Source: Candidatus Doudnabacteria bacterium (GTDB lineage Bacteria; Patescibacteriota; Doudnabacteria; UBA920; O2-02-FULL-48-8). Taken from it: a DNA stretch of 64,000 nt. The stretch spans positions 73,552 through 137,551 of the forward strand of contig JBBCGO010000001.1 of the NCBI GenBank assembly GCA_037200925.1, written 5' to 3'. Positions 38,541-46,138 of the stretch are shown here, in pieces (within the stretch, counting starts at the first letter, position 1; every line of letters starts with the position of its first letter). The translations under genes were made by a program, and so were the position numbers. Under the pieces are notes generated by a model. It was not told the origin of the DNA, searched no databases, and was given only the letters and a program-made list of their open reading frames with translations.

Positions 38541-39893
38541 ATGTCAAAACGTAGATTATACCTAACTTTTCTGGCGATCTTACTTCTGGCTGCAGGCGCG
38601 GTTTATTTGGATTTGCCGCAGGGAAGCAAGATCAATCTCAAACCGATAAAGATCAACTATAACCAGCAGTTCAAGCTCAAATTGGGTTTGGACCTGCAAG
38701 GCGGTACGCATTTGGTCTATGAAGGCGACCTTACGAACATCCCTCCTGAAGCGCAAAGCGATGCCATGAACTCGGCGCGAGATGTTATCGAACGGAGAGT
38801 AAATGCATTCGGGGTGTCTGAGCCTTTGGTCCAGGTTTCGGGAAACAACCGCCTGATAGTGGAATTGCCCGGGGTCAAGGACATCAACCAGGCCATCTCG
38901 CTCATCGGCCAAACTCCGTTTCTTGAATTCAGGGAAGAAAATCCCAATCCGCCGGCAGTGAAGCCCGACGCCAACGGCCAGGTGAACATTTCGGCTGATG
39001 ATGCCTTCAAACCAACCGGACTTTCCGGCAAACAGTTCAAGCGCGCAACATTGGAATTTGACCAGCGCACCGGCTTGCCGCAGGTGGCTTTGCAGTTTGA
39101 CGCGGAAGGCACAAAATTGTTTGCGGATATCACGACCCGCGATGTCGGCAAAAGGATCGCTATTTTTCTGGACGGAGAGATCTTATCGGCGCCGACGGTC
39201 AATACGCCGATCACCGACGGTCAGGCGATAATCACAGGACAATATACAGTTCAGGAAGCTAAAGACCTTGTGACAAGGCTTAACGCCGGCGCTTTGCCCG
39301 TTCCGATCAAACTCATCTCCCAGGAAAACGTCGGCGCCACGTTAGGTTTGCAGTCTGTGGAAAAAAGCGTGGAAGCAGGCTTGATCGGTTTCGCCATCGT
39401 GGCTTTGTTCATGATCATCTATTACCGGCTGCCAGGTGTTTTGGCGGTCATCGCTTTGTCTATTTATACGGCTTTAAGTTTGGCGATCTTCAAACTGTTC
39501 GGCATCACCATAACTCTTGCCGGCATCGCCGGGTTTATTTTGTCGGTTGGTATGGCCGTGGATGCCAATATTTTGATCTTTGAGCGCATGAAAGAAGAGC
39601 TGCGAAAAGGGAAAACCCTCCAGCAGTCGGTGGAAGACGGGTTTAACCGGGCCTGGCTGTCAGTGCGCGATTCTAATTTTTCCAGTTTGATCACGACTTT
39701 CATCCTGGGTTATTTCGGTTCCAGCATCATCCGGGGGTTCGCCATCACGCTGGCCATCGGCATCCTTGTTTCCATGTTCACAGCCATAACCGTGACCAGG
39801 ACCTTCTTAAGGATGCTGGTCGGCCACAATATTCTGGTCAAACACGGCTTATACGGCGTACGCACCATGGCTGAGGAGAAACCCAATGCTTAA
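38541..39893 (+). CDS. secD: SecD protein-export membrane protein
   Basis: 'LGLDLQGGTHLVYE', the periplasmic domain and C-terminal 6-TM 'SVGMAVDANILIFERMKEE'. Confidence 0.9.
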   Translation: MSKRRLYLTFLAILLLAAGAVYLDLPQGSKINLKPIKINYNQQFKLKLGLDLQGGTHLVYEGDLTNIPPEAQSDAMNSARDVIERRVNAFGVSEPLVQVSGNNRLIVELPGVKDINQAISLIGQTPFLEFREENPNPPAVKPDANGQVNISADDAFKPTGLSGKQFKRATLEFDQRTGLPQVALQFDAEGTKLFADITTRDVGKRIAIFLDGEILSAPTVNTPITDGQAIITGQYTVQEAKDLVTRLNAGALPVPIKLISQENVGATLGLQSVEKSVEAGLIGFAIVALFMIIYYRLPGVLAVIALSIYTALSLAIFKLFGITITLAGIAGFILSVGMAVDANILIFERMKEELRKGKTLQQSVEDGFNRAWLSVRDSNFSSLITTFILGYFGSSIIRGFAITLAIGILVSMFTAITVTRTFLRMLVGHNILVKHGLYGVRTMAEEKPNA

Positions 39894-40786
39894 CATAATG
39901 AAATATTACAAATTCTGGTTCGCAGTCTCCGCAATACTTTTATTGGCCGGCATTGTGTCTTTGGTGATGTTCCGCCTCAAGCCGGGTATCGATTTTACCG
40001 GCGGTGCCTTAACCCAGATCCAATTTCCGGGGGCTGTTCCGCAGTCTTCAGAAATACAATCAGTTCTCCAAAGCTCTTTTCCCGATGCCCAGATCCAGCC
40101 CGCCAGCGGCAACCAGGTGATCATCCGGACCGGACCGCAAGACCAAACGCAGCATGCCGCATTTATGAAAGCTCTGACCGATAAATTCGGCGCTGTGACA
40201 GAACAGCAATTCACTTCCATCGGCCCAATAATCGGCAAAGAGCTGCGCTCGCAGGCCTTCGTGCAGTTGCTTTTGGTCTCGTTGGGGATCATTTTCTATA
40301 TTGCCTATGCTTTCCGCAAGGTTACCAAACCTGTCTCGTCCTGGCGTTTTGGGATTGCGGCCGTCATTGCTCTTCTGCATGACCTGTTCATCGTGCTCGG
40401 CGCTTTCTCCATCCTGGGACATTTTAAGGGAATTGAAGTTGACAGCCTGTTTGTTACTGCCATGCTGACGGTTTTGGGTTTTTCCGTTCACGATACGATC
40501 GTTGTATTTGACCGGATCCGCGAAAATTTGCGCATACGGGCCGGGCAGTCATTGTCCGAGATCATCAACAACAGCATCAATCAAACTCTTGTCCGTTCTA
40601 TCAATACTTCACTGACGGTTATTTTTGTTCTTCTGTCGCTGTTCCTGTTCGGGGGGCAGCAGCATCCATATCTTTGTATTGGCCTTGCTGATAGGCATCA
40701 TTGCCGGGACCTATTCATCCATATTTATTGCCAGTCCGATCCTGATCGTCTGGCATAATTGGGAAGTCAGGCGTTCGTCCCGTTAA
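39886..40786 (+). CDS. secF: SecF protein-export membrane protein. C-terminus restored by removing one G from the G6 run at 40653..40658; this is an apparent +1 frameshift.
   Basis: The ORF 39886..40758 ends in an out-of-frame tail 'GGQQHPYLCIGLADRHH'. The +1 frame reads 'GGSSIHIFVLALLIGIIAGTYSSIFIASPILIVWHNWEVRRSSR*', a canonical SecF C-terminus. Confidence 0.8.
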
Positions 40787-40799
40787 AGCATAGATAACT

Positions 40800-40831
40800 A
40801 AAACCGCTCCGAGCAACTGAGCGGTTTTTAT
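40800..40831 (+). terminator. Rho-independent terminator after secDF
   Basis: 'aaaaccgctccgagcaactgagcggttttt'. Confidence 0.75.
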
Positions 40832-40876: not shown

Positions 40877-40905
40877 TTGACAGAATTGAAATTTTGTGCT
40901 ATACT
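40877..40905 (+). promoter_or_regulatory. Near-consensus sigma70 promoter (TTGACA-17-TATACT)
   Basis: TTGACA 40877..40882, 17-nt spacer, TATACT 40900..40905, 17 nt upstream of ATG 40923. Confidence 0.65.
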
Positions 40906-40922
40906 ATTTTTAATACAATTCT

Positions 40923-42080
40923 ATGTCAGATAAAGACACTAACAACCCGACGAGTTCCCATCCGCCTGCCGGACAAACAGGTATTTTGGATCAGATAATG
41001 GGGACCAAGACCCAGAACAGCTTGAATGATTTTCAGCCTGTTTCTTTGGTGAATGAGCTTATGGGCTCGTTAAAGGAGCGCGATAAGGAAATTTTAAGCA
41101 AACGTTTTGGCCTTTCCGGCTCGGAAATTGAGACCCTGGAAGCTATCGGCAAGAAACATAACCTGACCCGGGAACGCGTGCGTCAGATAGAAAAAGACTC
41201 TTTAAATACGCTAAAGAAAAAGCACCAGGGCGCCCACGAAAAAGCCCTGCAGCTGATCTTTGAAACCATCACGGAGCACGGCAACTTCATGAGCGAAGAA
41301 CTGTTGATGCAGATAATCCTTCAGAACAAGCCTGATCAGGAAGAAATGAATGCAGTTAAGTTTTTGCTCTATCTCGGCGAACAGTTCCAAAATTTTAAAG
41401 AATCACCGGAATTTTTTGAATCCTGGTATATCATCGGTTTTGATTTTGCCAAACTCGACCGGATCATAAAAGAATATACGGCAATTCTGGAGTCCGAGGG
41501 CCATGTTTTGACGGAGCTGTCTTTGCATCAGCGGTTCAAGCAGACCTCTTATTTTAAAGAACATGAGTTGGAATTGAATGACCGCGTTCTGCACAGCTAT
41601 CTGAATGCTTCCAAAGCCATCCAGATCAATCCTTTCGACGAGATCGGACTGAAACATTGGAGTGACGTTAAGCCCCGCGACGTTGGGGATAAAGCCTATC
41701 TGGTGATGAGGCATCATAAAAAACCCGAGCATTATTCCGTCATCACTAAGCTTATCAATGACAATAAATTTGACAACAGGGTGGCTTACCAGGAAACCGT
41801 GCATAATGAACTGATCAAAGACATCCGTTTTGTCCTGATCGGGAGGGGGATATATGCGCTTTCGGAATGGGGTTATACTAAGGGAGTCGTGGCGGATGTC
41901 ATCCGTGAGATCCTAAAATCTTTTGGCCGGCCGCTGACCCGGGATGAGATCATAACCGAGGTCATGAAGCGCCGTTTGGTGAAACGAAACACAATTTTGG
42001 TGGGCCTATCTAATCGGAAAAATTTCCAAAAGGTCGGCAAAGATAAATATGCATTGTCCCAAGGAGAACCAGTGAATTAA
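40923..42080 (+). CDS. Sigma-70 region-4 (HTH) domain protein with a ~260-aa C-terminal domain of unknown function
   Basis: 'ILSKRFGLSG...TLEAIGKKHNLTRERVRQIEKDSLNTLKK' matches region 4.2. No region 2 or 3 is present. Confidence 0.6.
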   Translation: MSDKDTNNPTSSHPPAGQTGILDQIMGTKTQNSLNDFQPVSLVNELMGSLKERDKEILSKRFGLSGSEIETLEAIGKKHNLTRERVRQIEKDSLNTLKKKHQGAHEKALQLIFETITEHGNFMSEELLMQIILQNKPDQEEMNAVKFLLYLGEQFQNFKESPEFFESWYIIGFDFAKLDRIIKEYTAILESEGHVLTELSLHQRFKQTSYFKEHELELNDRVLHSYLNASKAIQINPFDEIGLKHWSDVKPRDVGDKAYLVMRHHKKPEHYSVITKLINDNKFDNRVAYQETVHNELIKDIRFVLIGRGIYALSEWGYTKGVVADVIREILKSFGRPLTRDEIITEVMKRRLVKRNTILVGLSNRKNFQKVGKDKYALSQGEPVN

Positions 42081-43405
42081 TGTCAGTTTTAGGCGATTTT
42101 TTCCATTATTTGATAGATGTTGTTTTAATAAACTACTATGGGTGGACCCTGTTTGCGGGTTTGCTGTTCTGGATGATTTTTTATTTGAAGAGGGAAGAGA
42201 ACAACCACGTCTATCTGTCCGGGATCGAATGGGTTTTTTTGGAGGTAAAAATTGACGAGCTGAACGAAAAATCTCCTTTGGCCATGGAACAGATTTTTAC
42301 TGCCCTGCATGCGATCCATCAAAATTTTACGTTCGGCGAGAGGTTCAACGGCAGGTCCGTGCTCAATGTTTCCTGCGAAATTGTCAGTTTAGGCGGCAAG
42401 GTTTCTTTCATTTTTAGAATTCCCGCGCGCTTCCGCAATTTATTGGAAAGCGCGATCTTTGCCCAGTATCCGAAAGCGGAAGTTTTCGAGACTGAAGATT
42501 ATCTCCGCAACTTGCCTCACGATTATGACCCCAAGCACGCGGATTTTGATTTTTGGGGTACGGAGTGGCTGAAAAAGAAGGACAACGCTTATCCGATCAG
42601 GACTTATATGCTGGACTCTTCGTTCGAACATGGAGCTCAAGAAACGTTCATTGATCCGCTTTCCAATGTCATTGAAGTTATGAGCAACCTTCAGCCTTAT
42701 GAATTGTTGGTTTTTCAGCTCGTAATCAAACCCGTCGATGATTCTTGGAAAGAACACACAAAACATCTGGTGGACAAATTGAAAGGCGTTCCGGAAAAGC
42801 ATGGAGATGATTGGGTTTTCAGGATCATGCATTTCATTCCTGATCTGCTGGCCCGGATTTTAGTCGGGATAGTGTCGGGCCCCGAGGAAGGACACACAGC
42901 TCCTGTCAAGGTCCAGGAAGAGCCTCCAACCTTGATGATACACAAAACCGACGTGGAGAAGAGCGTGATCAATGCCATCGAGCATGCCGTCTCAAAGATC
43001 GGCTATGAAGTCCGCATCAGGACATTTTATCTGGCTCCCAAAGATAAGATCAACAAAGCCGTGAGAATACCTGAGATAGTCGGCGCGTTCCGGAATTTCG
43101 ACGAAGTGAATCTGAACGGTTTTAAGCCGGATATCGGCCACAGCTGGACAGAAGGGCCGAGTTATAAACTTTCGGAAAGGCTGGAGAGGCCGTATGTCGA
43201 AGCTAGCAAACTGACCCGGAAAAGACACATGCTGCACTGGATAACCTCGCGCAGCCATTGGCGCGGAGTGGGCAAGGTCATCATGAATACCGAGGAGCTG
43301 GCCACGATCTTCCATTTCCCGCAAGTGCCTCATACCCGCATTTCGCAGATGGAAAGAGTGCAAACGGTTAAATCAGCGCCTCCGATGGATTTACCAATAG
43401 GATAA
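42080..43405 (+). CDS. Membrane-anchored protein of unknown function (partner of the downstream ATPase)
   Basis: N-terminal TM 'WTLFAGLLFWMIFYL'. ATG overlaps the upstream stop (TAATG). The stop is 10 nt before the next start. Confidence 0.45.
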   Translation: MSVLGDFFHYLIDVVLINYYGWTLFAGLLFWMIFYLKREENNHVYLSGIEWVFLEVKIDELNEKSPLAMEQIFTALHAIHQNFTFGERFNGRSVLNVSCEIVSLGGKVSFIFRIPARFRNLLESAIFAQYPKAEVFETEDYLRNLPHDYDPKHADFDFWGTEWLKKKDNAYPIRTYMLDSSFEHGAQETFIDPLSNVIEVMSNLQPYELLVFQLVIKPVDDSWKEHTKHLVDKLKGVPEKHGDDWVFRIMHFIPDLLARILVGIVSGPEEGHTAPVKVQEEPPTLMIHKTDVEKSVINAIEHAVSKIGYEVRIRTFYLAPKDKINKAVRIPEIVGAFRNFDEVNLNGFKPDIGHSWTEGPSYKLSERLERPYVEASKLTRKRHMLHWITSRSHWRGVGKVIMNTEELATIFHFPQVPHTRISQMERVQTVKSAPPMDLPIG

Positions 43406-43414
43406 AATAAAAAA

Positions 43415-45244
43415 ATGAACGACGATAACGATATAACTTTATTTGCAAAAACGAATTTCCGGAACCGGGAAGTGTCTTTCGGCATACGCCGTGATGACCG
43501 CAGACGCCATATGTACATCATCGGGAAGACCGGTATGGGTAAAACTACGCTCATTGAAAATATGGTCATCCAGGACATTCAGGCCGGCCATGGCGTGGCC
43601 TTTGTGGACCCGCACGGAGACTCTATAGAGAAGATCCTGAATTATGTCCCGTCAAACCGGGTAAATGACGTGGTGTATCTCAATCCGGCAGACAGCGATT
43701 TTCCGATCGCATTCAATCCGCTGGAATCGGTTGATCCCAAATACAAGCATTTGGTGGCTTCAGGGTTGATGGGCGTATTCACGAAGATCTGGGCCGGGGT
43801 CTGGTCCGCTCGTATGGAATACATTTTGAACAATACTATTTTGGCCCTGCTTGATTCTCAGGGCAGCACTCTGCTCGGTATCGCCCGCATGCTGGTGAAC
43901 AAAACTTACCGTAAACGGATAGTTGATAACATCAAGGACCCGGTGGTCAAGTCTTTCTGGGTTGATGAATTTGCCAACTACAACGACAAATTCCGTAACG
44001 AAGCCATAGCTCCGATCCAGAACAAAGTCGGGCAGTTCTTGTCTTCCGCAATCATCCGCAATATTGTCGGCCAGACAAAAAGCTCAATTGATCTGCGGGA
44101 GATCATGGATAAGAAAAAGATCTTTCTCATCAACCTGTCCAAAGGGCGCATCGGCGAAGACAACTCAGCTTTATTGGGCGCGATGATCATCACAAAGATC
44201 CAGCTGGCCGCCATGAGCCGCGTGGACATTCCGGAAGAAGAGCGGGAAGATTTTTATCTGTACGTCGATGAATTTCAGAATTTTGCCACTGAATCGTTTG
44301 CCAATATTTTGTCCGAGGCGCGCAAATACCGACTGAACCTGATCGTCGCGCACCAATATATCGGGCAGCTGGTCCAGGGCAAGGACACAGTGGTCCGCGA
44401 TGCTATTTTCGGCAACGTCGGAACCCTGGTCTGTTTCCGGGTCGGCGCTGATGATTCGGAATTTTTGGAAAAAGAATTTGAGCCGACCTATATGATGCAC
44501 GATCTGGTCAACCTGACCAAATATCATGTTTATCTCAAACTTATGATCAACGGCGTGTCCTCAACTCCTTTTTCGGCTACGACCTTGGCGCCAATTGCCG
44601 AATCAACCGGTAATGAGGAAAAAGTCATCAATGTTTCGCGCGAGCGCTATGCCAACAAGCGGGAAACAGTTGAAGAAAAGATCAACAGATGGATGGGTTC
44701 GGAATTCCATGTGGCTGCTGCGGAAGCCGAGAGCAGCGCCGTGGAGCAAGAAGATTTGCAGGAAAATCTGCGCTATCATGAAAAAATGGCCACTCAGCCG
44801 ACTCCGCCGCAGGTCAGGCCCGCTGTGCAGCAACAGGCAAGTCCGATCGTCCAGACTCCGGTCAGAACCGAGCGAAGGCAGGAAGAGCGCCACGATGAAA
44901 GAAGGCAATTTGAGCGACGCACAAGGCAGGTAGATTCACACCCAAACAGGCGCGCGTCCGATAAAAAACCTGTAAACCCGGTTTGGGATACCGTAAATAA
45001 GATAACGGCCGAGAAAGTGACTGAGCGAGTGGAGAAAGCAACTTCAGCTATTGCAAATTTAAGCAAATCTTTGGAGCAGTCTCTGAATAGGAACCAACCA
45101 ACGCCTCAAAACACTGCGCCAAAACCTGAATCCTTGCCCCAACCGCCGAAACAGCAAGCACCTAAAGTCCAAGAAGAAACTCCAAAACCGACACTCCAGG
45201 TACAATCCGGAACCATAAAACCCGGTGATAAGATCCAATTCTAG
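43415..45244 (+). CDS. VirD4/TraG/TrwB-like (type IV coupling protein family) P-loop ATPase with a disordered C-terminal tail
   Basis: Walker A 'IIGKTGMGKTT' followed by 'VAFVDPHGD'. Walker B 'LYVDEFQNF'. 'RKYRLNLIVAHQYIGQL' is the TraG-D_C-like motif. C-terminal ~160 aa are Pro/Gln/Arg-rich. Confidence 0.65.
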   Translation: MNDDNDITLFAKTNFRNREVSFGIRRDDRRRHMYIIGKTGMGKTTLIENMVIQDIQAGHGVAFVDPHGDSIEKILNYVPSNRVNDVVYLNPADSDFPIAFNPLESVDPKYKHLVASGLMGVFTKIWAGVWSARMEYILNNTILALLDSQGSTLLGIARMLVNKTYRKRIVDNIKDPVVKSFWVDEFANYNDKFRNEAIAPIQNKVGQFLSSAIIRNIVGQTKSSIDLREIMDKKKIFLINLSKGRIGEDNSALLGAMIITKIQLAAMSRVDIPEEEREDFYLYVDEFQNFATESFANILSEARKYRLNLIVAHQYIGQLVQGKDTVVRDAIFGNVGTLVCFRVGADDSEFLEKEFEPTYMMHDLVNLTKYHVYLKLMINGVSSTPFSATTLAPIAESTGNEEKVINVSRERYANKRETVEEKINRWMGSEFHVAAAEAESSAVEQEDLQENLRYHEKMATQPTPPQVRPAVQQQASPIVQTPVRTERRQEERHDERRQFERRTRQVDSHPNRRASDKKPVNPVWDTVNKITAEKVTERVEKATSAIANLSKSLEQSLNRNQPTPQNTAPKPESLPQPPKQQAPKVQEETPKPTLQVQSGTIKPGDKIQF

Positions 45245-45269
45245 TTGTGGATAAATCGAATTTTGTAGA

Positions 45270-45300
45270 AAACAAGCCGACAAAAAGTCGGCTTGTTTTA
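45270..45300 (+). terminator. Rho-independent terminator
   Basis: 'aaaacaagccgacaaaaagtcggcttgtttt'. Confidence 0.75.
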
Positions 45301-45382
45301 GCAATAGATTGACTGTTGTAGGTAAAATTTTGACCAACCTGGTAAATACAAATAGGATGTAAAAGCAATTAATCGGAAATTT

Positions 45383-46138
45383 ATGGAATTAAACAATCTT
45401 TTGGAAGAATTCGGTTTATCCGACAAAGAGACAAACGTTTATCTCGCGCTTCTGGAATTAGGACCGGCCCCGGCCAGGGTGGTTGCCCGCAAATCCGGCG
45501 TAAACAGGGGGACTGCCTATGATATCCTTAAAAAATTAGTGGATTTGGGCTTGGTCAGTTTTTATAGGAAGGGCAAACAGCACTTTGCAGCCGAACCGCC
45601 GGAACGCCTGGTGGAAGCCGTGGAGGACAAACAAACCCGGCTGCAAAGGCTGAAGGTCAGCATTTCCGAAAAACTGCCTGAGCTCAAGACCATGTTCGTG
45701 GCCCAAGGGGGCCGCCCGACGATCCGGGTCTACGAGGGGTTCAAAGGGGTTAAAAAAATACTGGAGGATGTGCTCAATACGTTAGGCGAGGCAGCGGAAA
45801 AGGAATATGTTGTGTATTCCGCAGCCACGGCTAAAGACCGTAAGAGCATTTACCAGGAGTTCCCGGCGTTCAACCAAAGAAGGGTAGAAAAGGGCATCCG
45901 TGTCCGCACTATCTCTCTTGGTGAGGGCGGCTTCCTTTCGGGCCTGGATGAACGCAAGTGGCTGAGTGGAGGTCGCAATCGCACAACAGCCACTCACGAG
46001 TTGATCTACGGAGGCAAGATCGCGCACATTGGCCTAGACTCTTCCGAGATAGCTTTCGGTGTGATTGTCGAAAATCGCGACATTTATTTCACACAGAAGC
46101 AGATCTTCGAAAGTTTGTGGGGCAAGCTTAAGAGCTAA
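45383..46138 (+). CDS. TrmB-family transcriptional regulator
   Basis: 'LSDKETNVYLALLELGPAPARVVARKSGVNRGTAYDILKKLVDLGLV' is the TrmB N-terminal wHTH. Confidence 0.7.
   Translation: MELNNLLEEFGLSDKETNVYLALLELGPAPARVVARKSGVNRGTAYDILKKLVDLGLVSFYRKGKQHFAAEPPERLVEAVEDKQTRLQRLKVSISEKLPELKTMFVAQGGRPTIRVYEGFKGVKKILEDVLNTLGEAAEKEYVVYSAATAKDRKSIYQEFPAFNQRRVEKGIRVRTISLGEGGFLSGLDERKWLSGGRNRTTATHELIYGGKIAHIGLDSSEIAFGVIVENRDIYFTQKQIFESLWGKLKS

Follow-up and report, generated by a model that had tools for sequence, protein, structure and literature searches.

The window analyzed here is a stretch of 64,000 nucleotides (nt) from a Candidatus Doudnabacteria bacterium (assembly GCA_037200925.1, contig JBBCGO010000001.1), a member of the Patescibacteria. 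It contains an operon of three co-directional genes on the forward strand, flanked by two hairpin terminators, which we call A, B and C; they encode, respectively, a protein with a sigma factor region 4, a membrane protein of the DUF8128 family and an ATPase that resembles type IV coupling proteins (T4CPs). An earlier model-made reading of the letters and their open reading frames (ORFs), hereafter the sequence-only reading, had described a three-gene operon behind a near-consensus promoter, and the ORF coordinates that we obtained match that description:

40800..40828, forward strand: terminator-like hairpin 3' of secF, the upstream boundary of the operon (10-bp stem, -13.4 kcal/mol, z -3.9)
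40877..40905, forward strand: sigma-70-type promoter TTGACA-17-TATACT with a TG extension (11/12 match)
40923..42080, forward strand: gene A, sigma-region-4/HARE-HTH protein of 385 aa (Pfam)
42080..43405, forward strand: gene B, DUF8128 protein of 441 aa (PF26449)
43415..45244, forward strand: gene C, T4CP-like ATPase of 609 aa (Pfam, PDB sequence and fold matches)
45269..45299, forward strand: terminator-like hairpin closing the operon (13-bp stem, -22.7 kcal/mol, z -7.8)

The site at 40877-40905 was the top-scoring promoter of the region in a consensus scan; as a class, promoter-like sites showed only mild enrichment (13 observed versus 7.0 +/- 2.6 in shuffles). The hairpin at 40800-40828 is followed by the U-rich tract UAUUAUUUU. 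Terminators were judged by folding energy and z-score, and the boundaries previously placed at about 40800 and 45270 both fold as strong hairpins; the consensus scan flagged neither, because the loop is too long in one and a T-run lies inside the stem of the other. Genes A and B share a single base (TAATG), and a Shine-Dalgarno sequence, AAGGAG, stands 12 nt before the start of B; a gap of 9 nt separates B from C. The TAATG arrangement predicts that A and B are translationally coupled here. All three proteins are 100% identical to those of the Candidatus Doudnabacteria metagenome-assembled genome GCA_037975565.1.

Protein C shares the P-loop motor of the FtsK-HerA superfamily with the T4CPs TrwB (R388), VirD4/Cag-beta, TraD (F) and DotL. 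Pfam analysis showed matches to TrwB_AAD_bind across aa 27-344 (E = 8.5e-13; 48.4 bits, cut-off 20.5), to TraG-D_C across aa 281-351 (29.3 bits, cut-off 22) and to T4SS-DNA_transf (28.2 bits, cut-off 20.1), and NCBIfam gave partial matches to TraD and the CD1115 VirD4-like family as well as a weak match (1.5e-6) to CedD, which is named a DNA-translocating ATPase. The matches to AAA_10 (0.027) and P-loop_TraG (0.0046) were both under the cut-offs, so that C was not assigned a VirB4-type domain. No FtsK_SpoIIIE domain was found in C with Pfam or NCBIfam, and no FtsK chains were among the PDB sequence or fold matches listed for it. In a profile search of the PDB, the nearest solved structures were TrwB (1e-7) and DotL (6e-6), and HerA followed at 0.011. 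We also built an AlphaFold2 (AF2) model of C from a shallow alignment (78-96% identity) and used it for fold ranking only. In this Foldseek ranking, TrwB (5e-7), Cag-beta (1e-6) and DotL (1e-6) came ahead of HerA (4e-6) and of the VirB4 C-terminal domain (2.7e-3). The T4CP-like character that had been proposed for C therefore agrees with both sequence and fold, as a ranking by matches and not as a phylogeny.

The sequence motifs that had been read in C are all present, and 46 divergent homologues, from which motif invariance and column identity were determined, showed them to be invariant at the following positions:

43523..43546, forward strand: Walker A GKTGMGKT, aa 37-44 (G37, G40, G42 and K43 invariant)
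43607..43621, forward strand: DPHGD, aa 65-69, aligned with DPNGD of TrwB (D65, P66, H67 and G68 invariant)
44255..44278, forward strand: Walker B YLYVDEFQ, aa 281-288, aligned with the TrwB Walker B region (D285, E286, F287 and Q288 invariant)
44348..44371, forward strand: AHQYIGQL, aa 312-319, within the TraG-D_C match (Q314, Y315 and Q318 invariant)
44705..45241, forward strand: disordered Pro/Gln/Glu-rich tail (from composition) ending in the conserved peptide ..KPGDKIQF

Thus C has the order that T4CPs share, namely Walker A followed by DPxGD, a Walker B of the hhhhDE type and the TraG-D_C region, with a predicted helical insertion between the two Walker motifs (helices at aa 108-217, where the predicted local distance difference test (pLDDT) score is <50). 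Its mean column identity is 71% over 46 loci, against 33% in the B family alignment, which consists mostly of cluster representatives. The Pro/Gln-rich tail had also been recognized before; it covers aa 431-609 (179 aa; 12% Q, 11% P, 10% E), and its length differs among lineages. Among 48 complete tails from divergent loci, 14 end in a peptide of the ..PG[DEQ]x[IV]xF type and 18 carry an alternative terminus, ..L[KR]xxLEE[ST].. (in longer form ..VDxxxL[KR]xxLEE[ST]..), and the two peptides are mutually exclusive. This suggests lineage-specific docking partners, and the tail can be likened to the disordered C-terminal tail of T4CPs with its terminal docking peptide; the tail of F TraD binds TraM. 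An internal NPxW motif was observed in the tails of Doudnabacteria.

By sequence, motifs and modelled fold, C would be classed as a T4CP. It departs from T4CPs in two respects, namely a transmembrane (TM) domain in cis and an association with a type IV secretion system (T4SS) or relaxase. The protein starts about 30 residues before Walker A with no hydrophobic segment, so that no TM domain is supplied by the C polypeptide. Unlike the T4CPs, whose TM domain consists of two helices, C is partnered by a domain of about 400 aa whose predicted fold resembles VirB4. Its gene belongs to the core chromosome, with no T4SS or relaxase gene near it, and C is far more conserved than plasmid T4CPs. As had been stated before, no T4SS, relaxase or pilus genes lie nearby: these genes and com genes are all missing within +/-10 kb of the operon. 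In addition, we scanned ten further large ORFs in the window and none was a T4SS, relaxase or pilus gene; five had no family match, and those with a match were envelope-glycan and metabolic genes.

The partner domain is provided by gene B, which had been described as a membrane anchor supplied by a separate gene. The N-terminal anchoring holds, and the description understates B, which belongs to Pfam DUF8128 (PF26449), has a large folded domain and corresponds to the N-terminal half of a larger protein. The family assignment is precomputed for the identical protein and nearly all of its homologues, whereas our direct Pfam scan of B gave no match; the family comprises approximately 1,560 clusters at 50% identity, and no mention of DUF8128 was found in the literature searched. 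Two segments of B stand out:

42107..42187, forward strand: single hydrophobic TM helix, aa ~10-36 (from sequence; a long N-terminal helix in the model)
43277..43402, forward strand: conserved C-terminal peptide, aa 400-441 (NTEELATIFHFP...PP.DLP; alignment of 61 sequences)

The domain of about 400 aa is predicted to be cytoplasmic, because K/R residues follow the TM helix (the positive-inside rule) and because it is fused to a cytoplasmic ATPase in relatives. Within the C-terminal peptide, A408, H412, P414, P435 and P439 are invariant in the 61 sequences, and aa 418-441 are modelled as disordered (pLDDT <50). In fused relatives, the junction with the ATPase falls at this peptide, and a similar motif precedes the ATPase of phage G gp156. 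The AF2 model of B (pLDDT 80.8, predicted template modelling score (pTM) 0.75) consists of repeated alpha/beta units, and its top 13 PDB fold matches in Foldseek were all R388 TrwK/VirB4 chains (E 8e-5 to 1.4e-3, probability >=0.98). Among viral folds, the model matched phage G gp156 (7e-17), the VirB4-like gp155 (6e-7) and a 913-aa protein of phage JL. No match to the PDB was found by sequence, either with B alone or with the B profile, and the hhalign comparisons of the B profile with F TraC and with phage G gp155 did not reach significance. On this model, B would be not merely an anchor but a TM helix combined with a large folded domain. In spite of the likeness of the modelled B fold to VirB4/TrwK, the B-C combination is not a VirB4, because its ATPase half is of the T4CP type and nearer to T4CPs than to the VirB4 C-terminal domain. 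There are also no adjacent VirB3, VirB6 or VirB8 genes here.

The relation between B and C became clear from relatives in which they form one polypeptide. Neither tblastn of B against phage genomes nor a scan of IMG/VR with the B profile gave a match, and a scan of genome contigs with the single B sequence found only four close Doudnabacteria loci; the phage link came via PHROGs, the C query, profiles and folds. In phrog_5156 (824 positions), B matches positions 71-201 and C matches 395-809. The B and C profiles match the N- and C-terminal halves, respectively, of phage G gp156 (825 aa; 3.7e-20 for B and 1.9e-57 for C), phage SP8 QPX71692 (906 aa; 6.4e-10 and 8.2e-29) and WP_128472464 of the Bacillus licheniformis plasmid NZ_CP035190 (885 aa; 1.6e-20 and 3.4e-50). 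These fused proteins have the same B-C domain order, although they are only 24-29% identical to C. From these alignments, B appears to be the detached N-terminal half of a coupling ATPase, and the split-versus-fused (Rosetta-stone) relation implies that B and C act together.

The genetic context of the fused relatives is that of mobile elements. On the B. licheniformis plasmid, the fused gene is followed by Replic_Relax, TcpC and AAA_10 VirB4-like genes, which constitute a monoderm conjugation cluster, and in phage SP8 the fused ATPase gene is directly followed by a Replic_Relax gene (L008:3747-7284), the same pair as on the plasmid. Replic_Relax (PF13814) has been listed as the MOB_C relaxase family (PMC5357655) and as a PD-(D/E)XK family (PMC3424549). 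Homologues of C were found on 324 plasmid records from Streptomyces, Bacillus, Staphylococcus, Clostridium, haloarchaea and Sulfolobus. Taken together, a class of monoderm, archaeal and phage elements has the B-C type as its coupling protein, and the Doudnabacteria version of it is split. The Doudnabacteria operon differs from the fused Bacillus plasmid and phage proteins in having two genes instead of one polypeptide and in lying in the core chromosome rather than on a mobile element with, in the plasmid copy, TcpC and VirB4 genes. In both cases, the ATPase is paired with a DNA-binding protein that contains a helix-turn-helix (HTH); in the fused relatives this is a Replic_Relax/MOB_C-type protein with a PD-(D/E)XK nuclease domain, encoded downstream, whereas here it is A, which has no nuclease and is encoded upstream.

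Several other relatives were observed in the same searches. Other SPO1-like lytic phages also carry the B-C-type ATPase. In phage G, gp155 and gp156 (L007:2220-6362) are adjacent ATPase genes whose products both have an N-terminal B (DUF8128-like) fold, and since the gp155 ATPase is of the VirB4/TraG-P-loop type and gp156 of the T4CP type, they form a VirB4/T4CP-like pair in a jumbo phage. The closest C homologue in the plasmid collection was a 395-aa protein on an alphaproteobacterial plasmid, NZ_CP081110 of Sulfitobacter mediterraneus (L090:6986-8173), with 38.6% identity and a C profile E-value of 1.8e-120. It has neither the N-terminal domain nor the tail, and it is closely followed by a transposase gene and a gene for an IS91 family transposase; this copy may represent horizontal transfer of the bare motor.

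Next, we examined gene order in distant relatives by scanning metagenome contigs with the B profile, which yielded 80 loci with B proteins 28-40% identical to ours (one exception, 68%). A lies directly upstream of B in 52 of the 60 evaluable loci, and C directly downstream in 60 of 67; the full A-B-C order occurs in 39/53, so the three genes remain syntenic well beyond the close relatives. Of the two outcomes that would have refuted the sequence-only reading, an ATPase outside the T4CP/FtsK-like groups and a lack of synteny in relatives, neither was observed. SecF is encoded immediately upstream of the module in 37 of 51 evaluable loci, usually as secD-secF, and it abuts B directly in loci that lack A. 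When neighbouring ORFs were clustered, mnmA was the sole other conserved neighbour (14 loci, 3-8 kb downstream of B). No T4SS, relaxase, pilus or competence genes were found within +/-7 kb of B in the 80 loci. These data show phylum-wide synteny and strong purifying selection on the module. That A-B-C is a chromosomal core module of the Patescibacteria, vertically inherited throughout the phylum, is well supported, as is the conclusion that B and C together are one T4CP of the monoderm conjugation type split into two genes. The sequence-only reading had missed this phylum-wide core module fixed beside secDF. In six loci (L052, L056, L065, L072, L075 and L077), a GT4 glycosyltransferase and a DUF4012 protein replace C after B; A and B are present there (e.g., L056:8380-12080), and the non-sigma part of A is more divergent.

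Protein A had been described as having a sigma-70 region 4.2 HTH as its only recognizable part, with no region 2. The first and last of these statements hold, as Sigma70_r4 matched aa 47-99 (8.5e-12; 44.9 bits, Pfam cut-off 24.1) and there was no Pfam match to Sigma70_r2 or Sigma70_r3, but region 4 is not the only recognizable part, given that Pfam HARE-HTH (E = 3.6e-10) also matched A in two stretches (aa ~256-319 and 322-363):

41043..41237, forward strand: sigma region 4 (4.1 + 4.2), aa 41-105, with the -35 recognition helix LTRERVRQIE
41688..41879, forward strand: first HARE-HTH winged helix, aa 256-319 (Pfam and TIGR04567 stretches)
41886..42077, forward strand: second HARE-HTH winged helix, aa 322-385 (best Pfam stretch aa 322-363)

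The sigma region aligns without gaps with region 4 of SigA, RpoD and RpoS, and the recognition helix LTRERVRQIE is intact and the same as in primary-sigma helices of the SigA/RpoS type. Among 50 divergent A homologues, TRERvRQiE is conserved at >=90%, with v and i at >=60%. The equivalent helix of E. coli sigma-70 carries the -35-contacting residues R584, E585, R586, R588 and Q589. Judging from this helix, region 4 of A could read a -35-like TTGACA element, and it possibly binds the beta-flap of RNA polymerase (RNAP). The first HARE-HTH is the best-conserved segment of A (mean column identity 0.70; 0.52 in the second). However, A is not a sigma factor and cannot open promoters as one, because it has no region 2; its likeness to SigA, RpoD and RpoS is confined to regions 4.1/4.2 and the recognition helix, without regions 2 and 3. 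The NCBIfam sigma models match A only through their C-terminal ~60 residues. Nor is A the RNAP delta subunit, as which it is annotated in some sources: TIGR04567 (RNAP delta) scored 24.1 bits against a cut-off of 42, the HARE-HTH stands at the N-terminus of delta (RpoE of Firmicutes) whereas A has two copies C-terminally, and the acidic C-terminal tail of delta is missing from A. Full-length sigma and delta models all score far below their cut-offs on A. No nuclease or relaxase domain was found in A. We also considered whether A is a degenerate MOB_C relaxase and rejected this, because the A profile fails to match Replic_Relax proteins and the published parse of a homologue in Southlakia epibionticum shows helical and winged-helix domains only.

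Published transposon sequencing (Tn-seq) data on S. epibionticum bear directly on the module. The A homologue, SEML1_0294, contains Sigma70_r4 and HARE-HTH, with one tri-helical and three winged domains, and is essential, core and Patescibacteria-enriched (PMC10633639). Beside it, SEML1_0293 encodes a 921-aa protein that is likewise core and Patescibacteria-enriched, with a T4CP domain at 402-719 (PMC10633639). Given this length and domain position, SEML1_0293 is apparently a fused B-C in Saccharibacteria. It is non-essential, and its normalized reads fell from 5817 to 2940 to 1372, an approximately 4-fold drop over passages (PMC10633639). Thus, Southlakia has the same pair in the same order, A and then the T4CP, whereas its neighbours differ, being Cas9, topA and dprA. 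A second T4CP-like protein, SEML1_0142 (1019 aa, annotated with a 'TraM recognition domain'), has a long N-terminal region before a P-loop domain at aa 381-800 and is essential, core and Patescibacteria-enriched (PMC10633639, Tables S1 and S2); this protein could be either a B-C paralogue or the actual coupling protein of the T4SS. Southlakia also has a canonical FtsK (SEML1_0096), which is present and essential (PMC10633639). The module shares with FtsK/SpoIIIE the superfamily of membrane-tethered ring translocases, a long Pro/Gln-rich linker and winged-helix DNA recognition (here from A), and we rejected the module as an FtsK substitute in view of the separate, essential FtsK of Southlakia.

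The essentiality of SEML1_0294 next to a dispensable B-C gene raises the question of whether A is simply an essential, RNAP-associated transcription factor whose co-transcription with B and C is regulatory or historical, B-C acting without it. The conserved -35 recognition helix matches those of primary sigma factors, and the HARE-HTH is the fold of RNAP delta, in line with the weak TIGR04567 match and the delta annotation. In addition, no A gene directly precedes B-C in 8/60 loci, and in 7/67 A-B is not followed by C. Set against these points, A is directly upstream of B in 52 of 60 divergent loci and is paired with B-C in Saccharibacteria too, A and B have the TAATG arrangement of translational coupling, and the typical partner of a T4CP from this lineage is an HTH DNA-binding or DNA-processing protein. 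Moreover, an essential role for A is compatible with a second role alongside B-C. We therefore regard an exclusively transcriptional role as rather unlikely.

The same data invite the idea that B-C is a DNA-import motor in natural transformation, working with ComEC and type IV pili in place of a ComFA-type ATPase while A handles the incoming DNA. Saccharibacteria are naturally competent via ComEC, and the competence parts conserved in the candidate phyla radiation (ComEC, DprA and ComFC) include no named ATPase motor. SEML1_0293 is not needed for growth, a property that it shares with the com genes; in Southlakia, only five genes separate it in position from dprA (SEML1_0298), and C has its weak CedD match. 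This support is not direct, however. Known T4CPs work in export, com and pilus genes are missing within +/-7 kb in the 80 loci and within +/-10 kb here, and the near-housekeeping conservation of C (71%) would be unusual for an accessory competence factor. Such a role thus seems quite unlikely to us.

The question of what the coupling ATPase serves leads to the secretion systems of the phylum. The essential T4SS cluster of Southlakia "lacks recognizable coupling and relaxase proteins" (PMC10633639). In a survey of Patescibacteria, VirD4-like T4CPs were present as 5,713 copies in 2,918 of 3,035 genomes (96%), of which only 148 copies were near virB4 (PMC12102498). The T4SS clusters were mostly without relaxases, which are rare, and according to the authors T4CP exaptation "cannot be ruled out" (PMC12102498). 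Neither PMC12102498 nor PMC10633639 discusses the A/B/C module.

Based on these results, our preferred explanation, which we hold tentatively and at somewhat below even chances, is that the operon encodes a domesticated, split coupling ATPase of the monoderm type together with a DNA-binding adaptor, A, and that it feeds a conduit encoded elsewhere. We infer the substrate and the conduit; the nearest characterizable relatives are coupling proteins of monoderm conjugation clusters, which suggests that the conduit is encoded elsewhere. In this model, C would form a membrane-tethered ring on B, and A would mark the DNA or nucleoprotein substrate. Plausibly, A would be captured by the C-terminal tail peptide of C, paralleling the capture of TraM by the TraD tail in the F plasmid. 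ATP hydrolysis would then feed the substrate to the conduit, the most plausible candidate for which is the Patescibacterial T4SS, whose own cluster lacks a coupling protein and relaxase. A would fill the place that the MOB_C relaxase has beside the fused B-C in Bacillus plasmids and SPO1-like phages, and beyond this it must do something essential independently of B-C, probably in transcription. The "minimal DNA uptake or transfer device" that had been suggested for the operon is unproven, and the operon encodes no channel.

A number of observations weigh against this explanation. The AF2 model of the C core is of low confidence (pLDDT 60.6, pTM 0.69), worst in the putative all-alpha insertion, and the TM-scores of B against TrwK/VirB4 are low (0.30-0.35); the link of B to VirB4 would exist at the level of the modelled fold only, with no sequence-profile signal. 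The module is not uniform, as 8/60 loci are without A and 7/67 without C at the expected place, and a model of DNA transfer leaves the conserved adjacency to secDF unexplained. VirB4 was found in 2,417 of 3,035 genomes (80%), fewer than the T4CP-like genes (96%), which implies that the motor is retained in at least some lineages devoid of a T4SS (PMC12102498). The T4SS of Southlakia is essential while SEML1_0293 is not; hence, any contribution of SEML1_0293 to the T4SS would be to a function that the cell can do without. Likewise, because the A homologue is essential and B-C is not, A cannot be only an adaptor of B-C, and a simple one-machine model does not predict an essential A with a non-essential ATPase. 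In conjugation, VirB4 is needed for pilus biogenesis and the T4CP for substrate transfer only. By analogy, this division of labour could explain how the T4SS can be essential and the T4CP dispensable.

We also considered a Patescibacteria-specific machine, independent of conjugation, in which A tethers -35-type promoter DNA and/or the RNAP flap to a hybrid T4CP/VirB4-like motor beside SecDF and thereby couples transcription or chromosomal DNA to membrane translocation. We consider this distinctly improbable; if true, its output could be nucleic acid export to or import from the host, or co-transcriptional targeting.

The position beside secDF introduces a further possibility. The two genes that precede the operon here are:

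38541..39893, forward strand: secD (Pfam SecD_1st, SecDF_P1_head, SecD_SecF_C)
39886..40786, forward strand: secF (Pfam SecD_SecF_C), with its 3' end frameshifted in this assembly

The module might act in protein export or membrane biogenesis with SecDF, C being a T4CP-type unfoldase or a coupling ATPase for proteins. The frequent placement of SecF immediately upstream (37/51 loci), and next to B where A is missing, points in this direction, as does the presence of DotL and Cag-beta, from protein-handling, effector-translocating systems, among the best fold matches of C. The adjacency may nevertheless be mere inherited gene order: a strong terminator and the operon's own promoter separate secDF from it here, A is a DNA-binding protein, and neither 'SecD' nor 'SecF' occurs as a term in the supplementary tables on Southlakia, an organism that has the module (PMC10633639). 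A role in protein export is, in our judgment, very unlikely.

The remaining surroundings of the operon are housekeeping genes, namely secA, metK and maf besides secD and secF upstream, and mnmA and an H+-pyrophosphatase gene downstream, together with a gene for a TrmB-like regulator. GC content is level across the region, with no difference between the operon and its flanks. This bears on whether the operon is an anti-phage defence system or the remnant of a mobile element, in which the HARE-HTH would sense foreign DNA and be coupled to a HerA/T4CP-like ATPase. C matched mad8 of PADLOC (1.3e-17) as well as HerA and DndH, A matched MzaA, though through sigma region 4 only, the HARE-HTH is known from restriction/defence contexts (Pfam description), and relatives of C are common on plasmids and phages. 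However, the site is fixed in the chromosome beside secDF, the T4CP family occurs in 96% of the genomes of the phylum, and C is 71% identical across lineages in a family flagged as core. Next to the operon there is no nuclease, methylase or integrase gene and no further MADS or Mza gene, and the matches to these systems involve single domains only. We therefore rejected a defence system or mobile island, on the basis of conservation and housekeeping context, as extremely improbable.

Two neighbouring genes deserve mention in their own right. The frameshift in secF (window positions 40646-40786) is probably a homopolymer assembly error: an independent Logan assembly of the organism has G5 where the G6 run stands here (~40651-40656), and the canonical SecF C-terminus (..IAGTYSSIFIASPILIVWHNWEVRRSSR*) is readable in another frame, with its stop at 40784-40786. 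Directly past the operon terminator lies the gene for the TrmB-family HTH regulator (45383-46138), with a weak promoter-like site, TTGACC-17-TAGGAT, ahead of it at 45330-45358. No conservation of this gene was found in the related loci, unlike mnmA.

The genes of the module were already annotated and counted in surveys. The literature searched gave no description of the split into two genes, of a VirB4-like fold for DUF8128, of the relationship to fused T4CPs on Bacillus plasmids and in phages, of the constant partner that carries sigma region 4 and HARE-HTH, or of the secDF-A-B-C array, and HARE-HTH is not mentioned in any of the papers listed by a search that combined it with Patescibacteria terms.

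The Patescibacteria make up a large share of bacterial diversity, are attached to hosts and are unable to make their own nucleotides. Their T4SS is essential in the one species tested, and yet it is without a coupling protein and relaxase, while approximately 96% of their genomes carry "orphan" T4CP-like genes. Our analysis gives such an orphan an architecture and a context, namely kinship with or descent from monoderm conjugation systems, a partner that is essential in Southlakia and a position at the side of secDF. In this way, a vague annotation becomes a set of hypotheses that are testable in a genetically tractable organism. In addition, the B-C architecture may bear on how VirB4 and VirD4 diverged.

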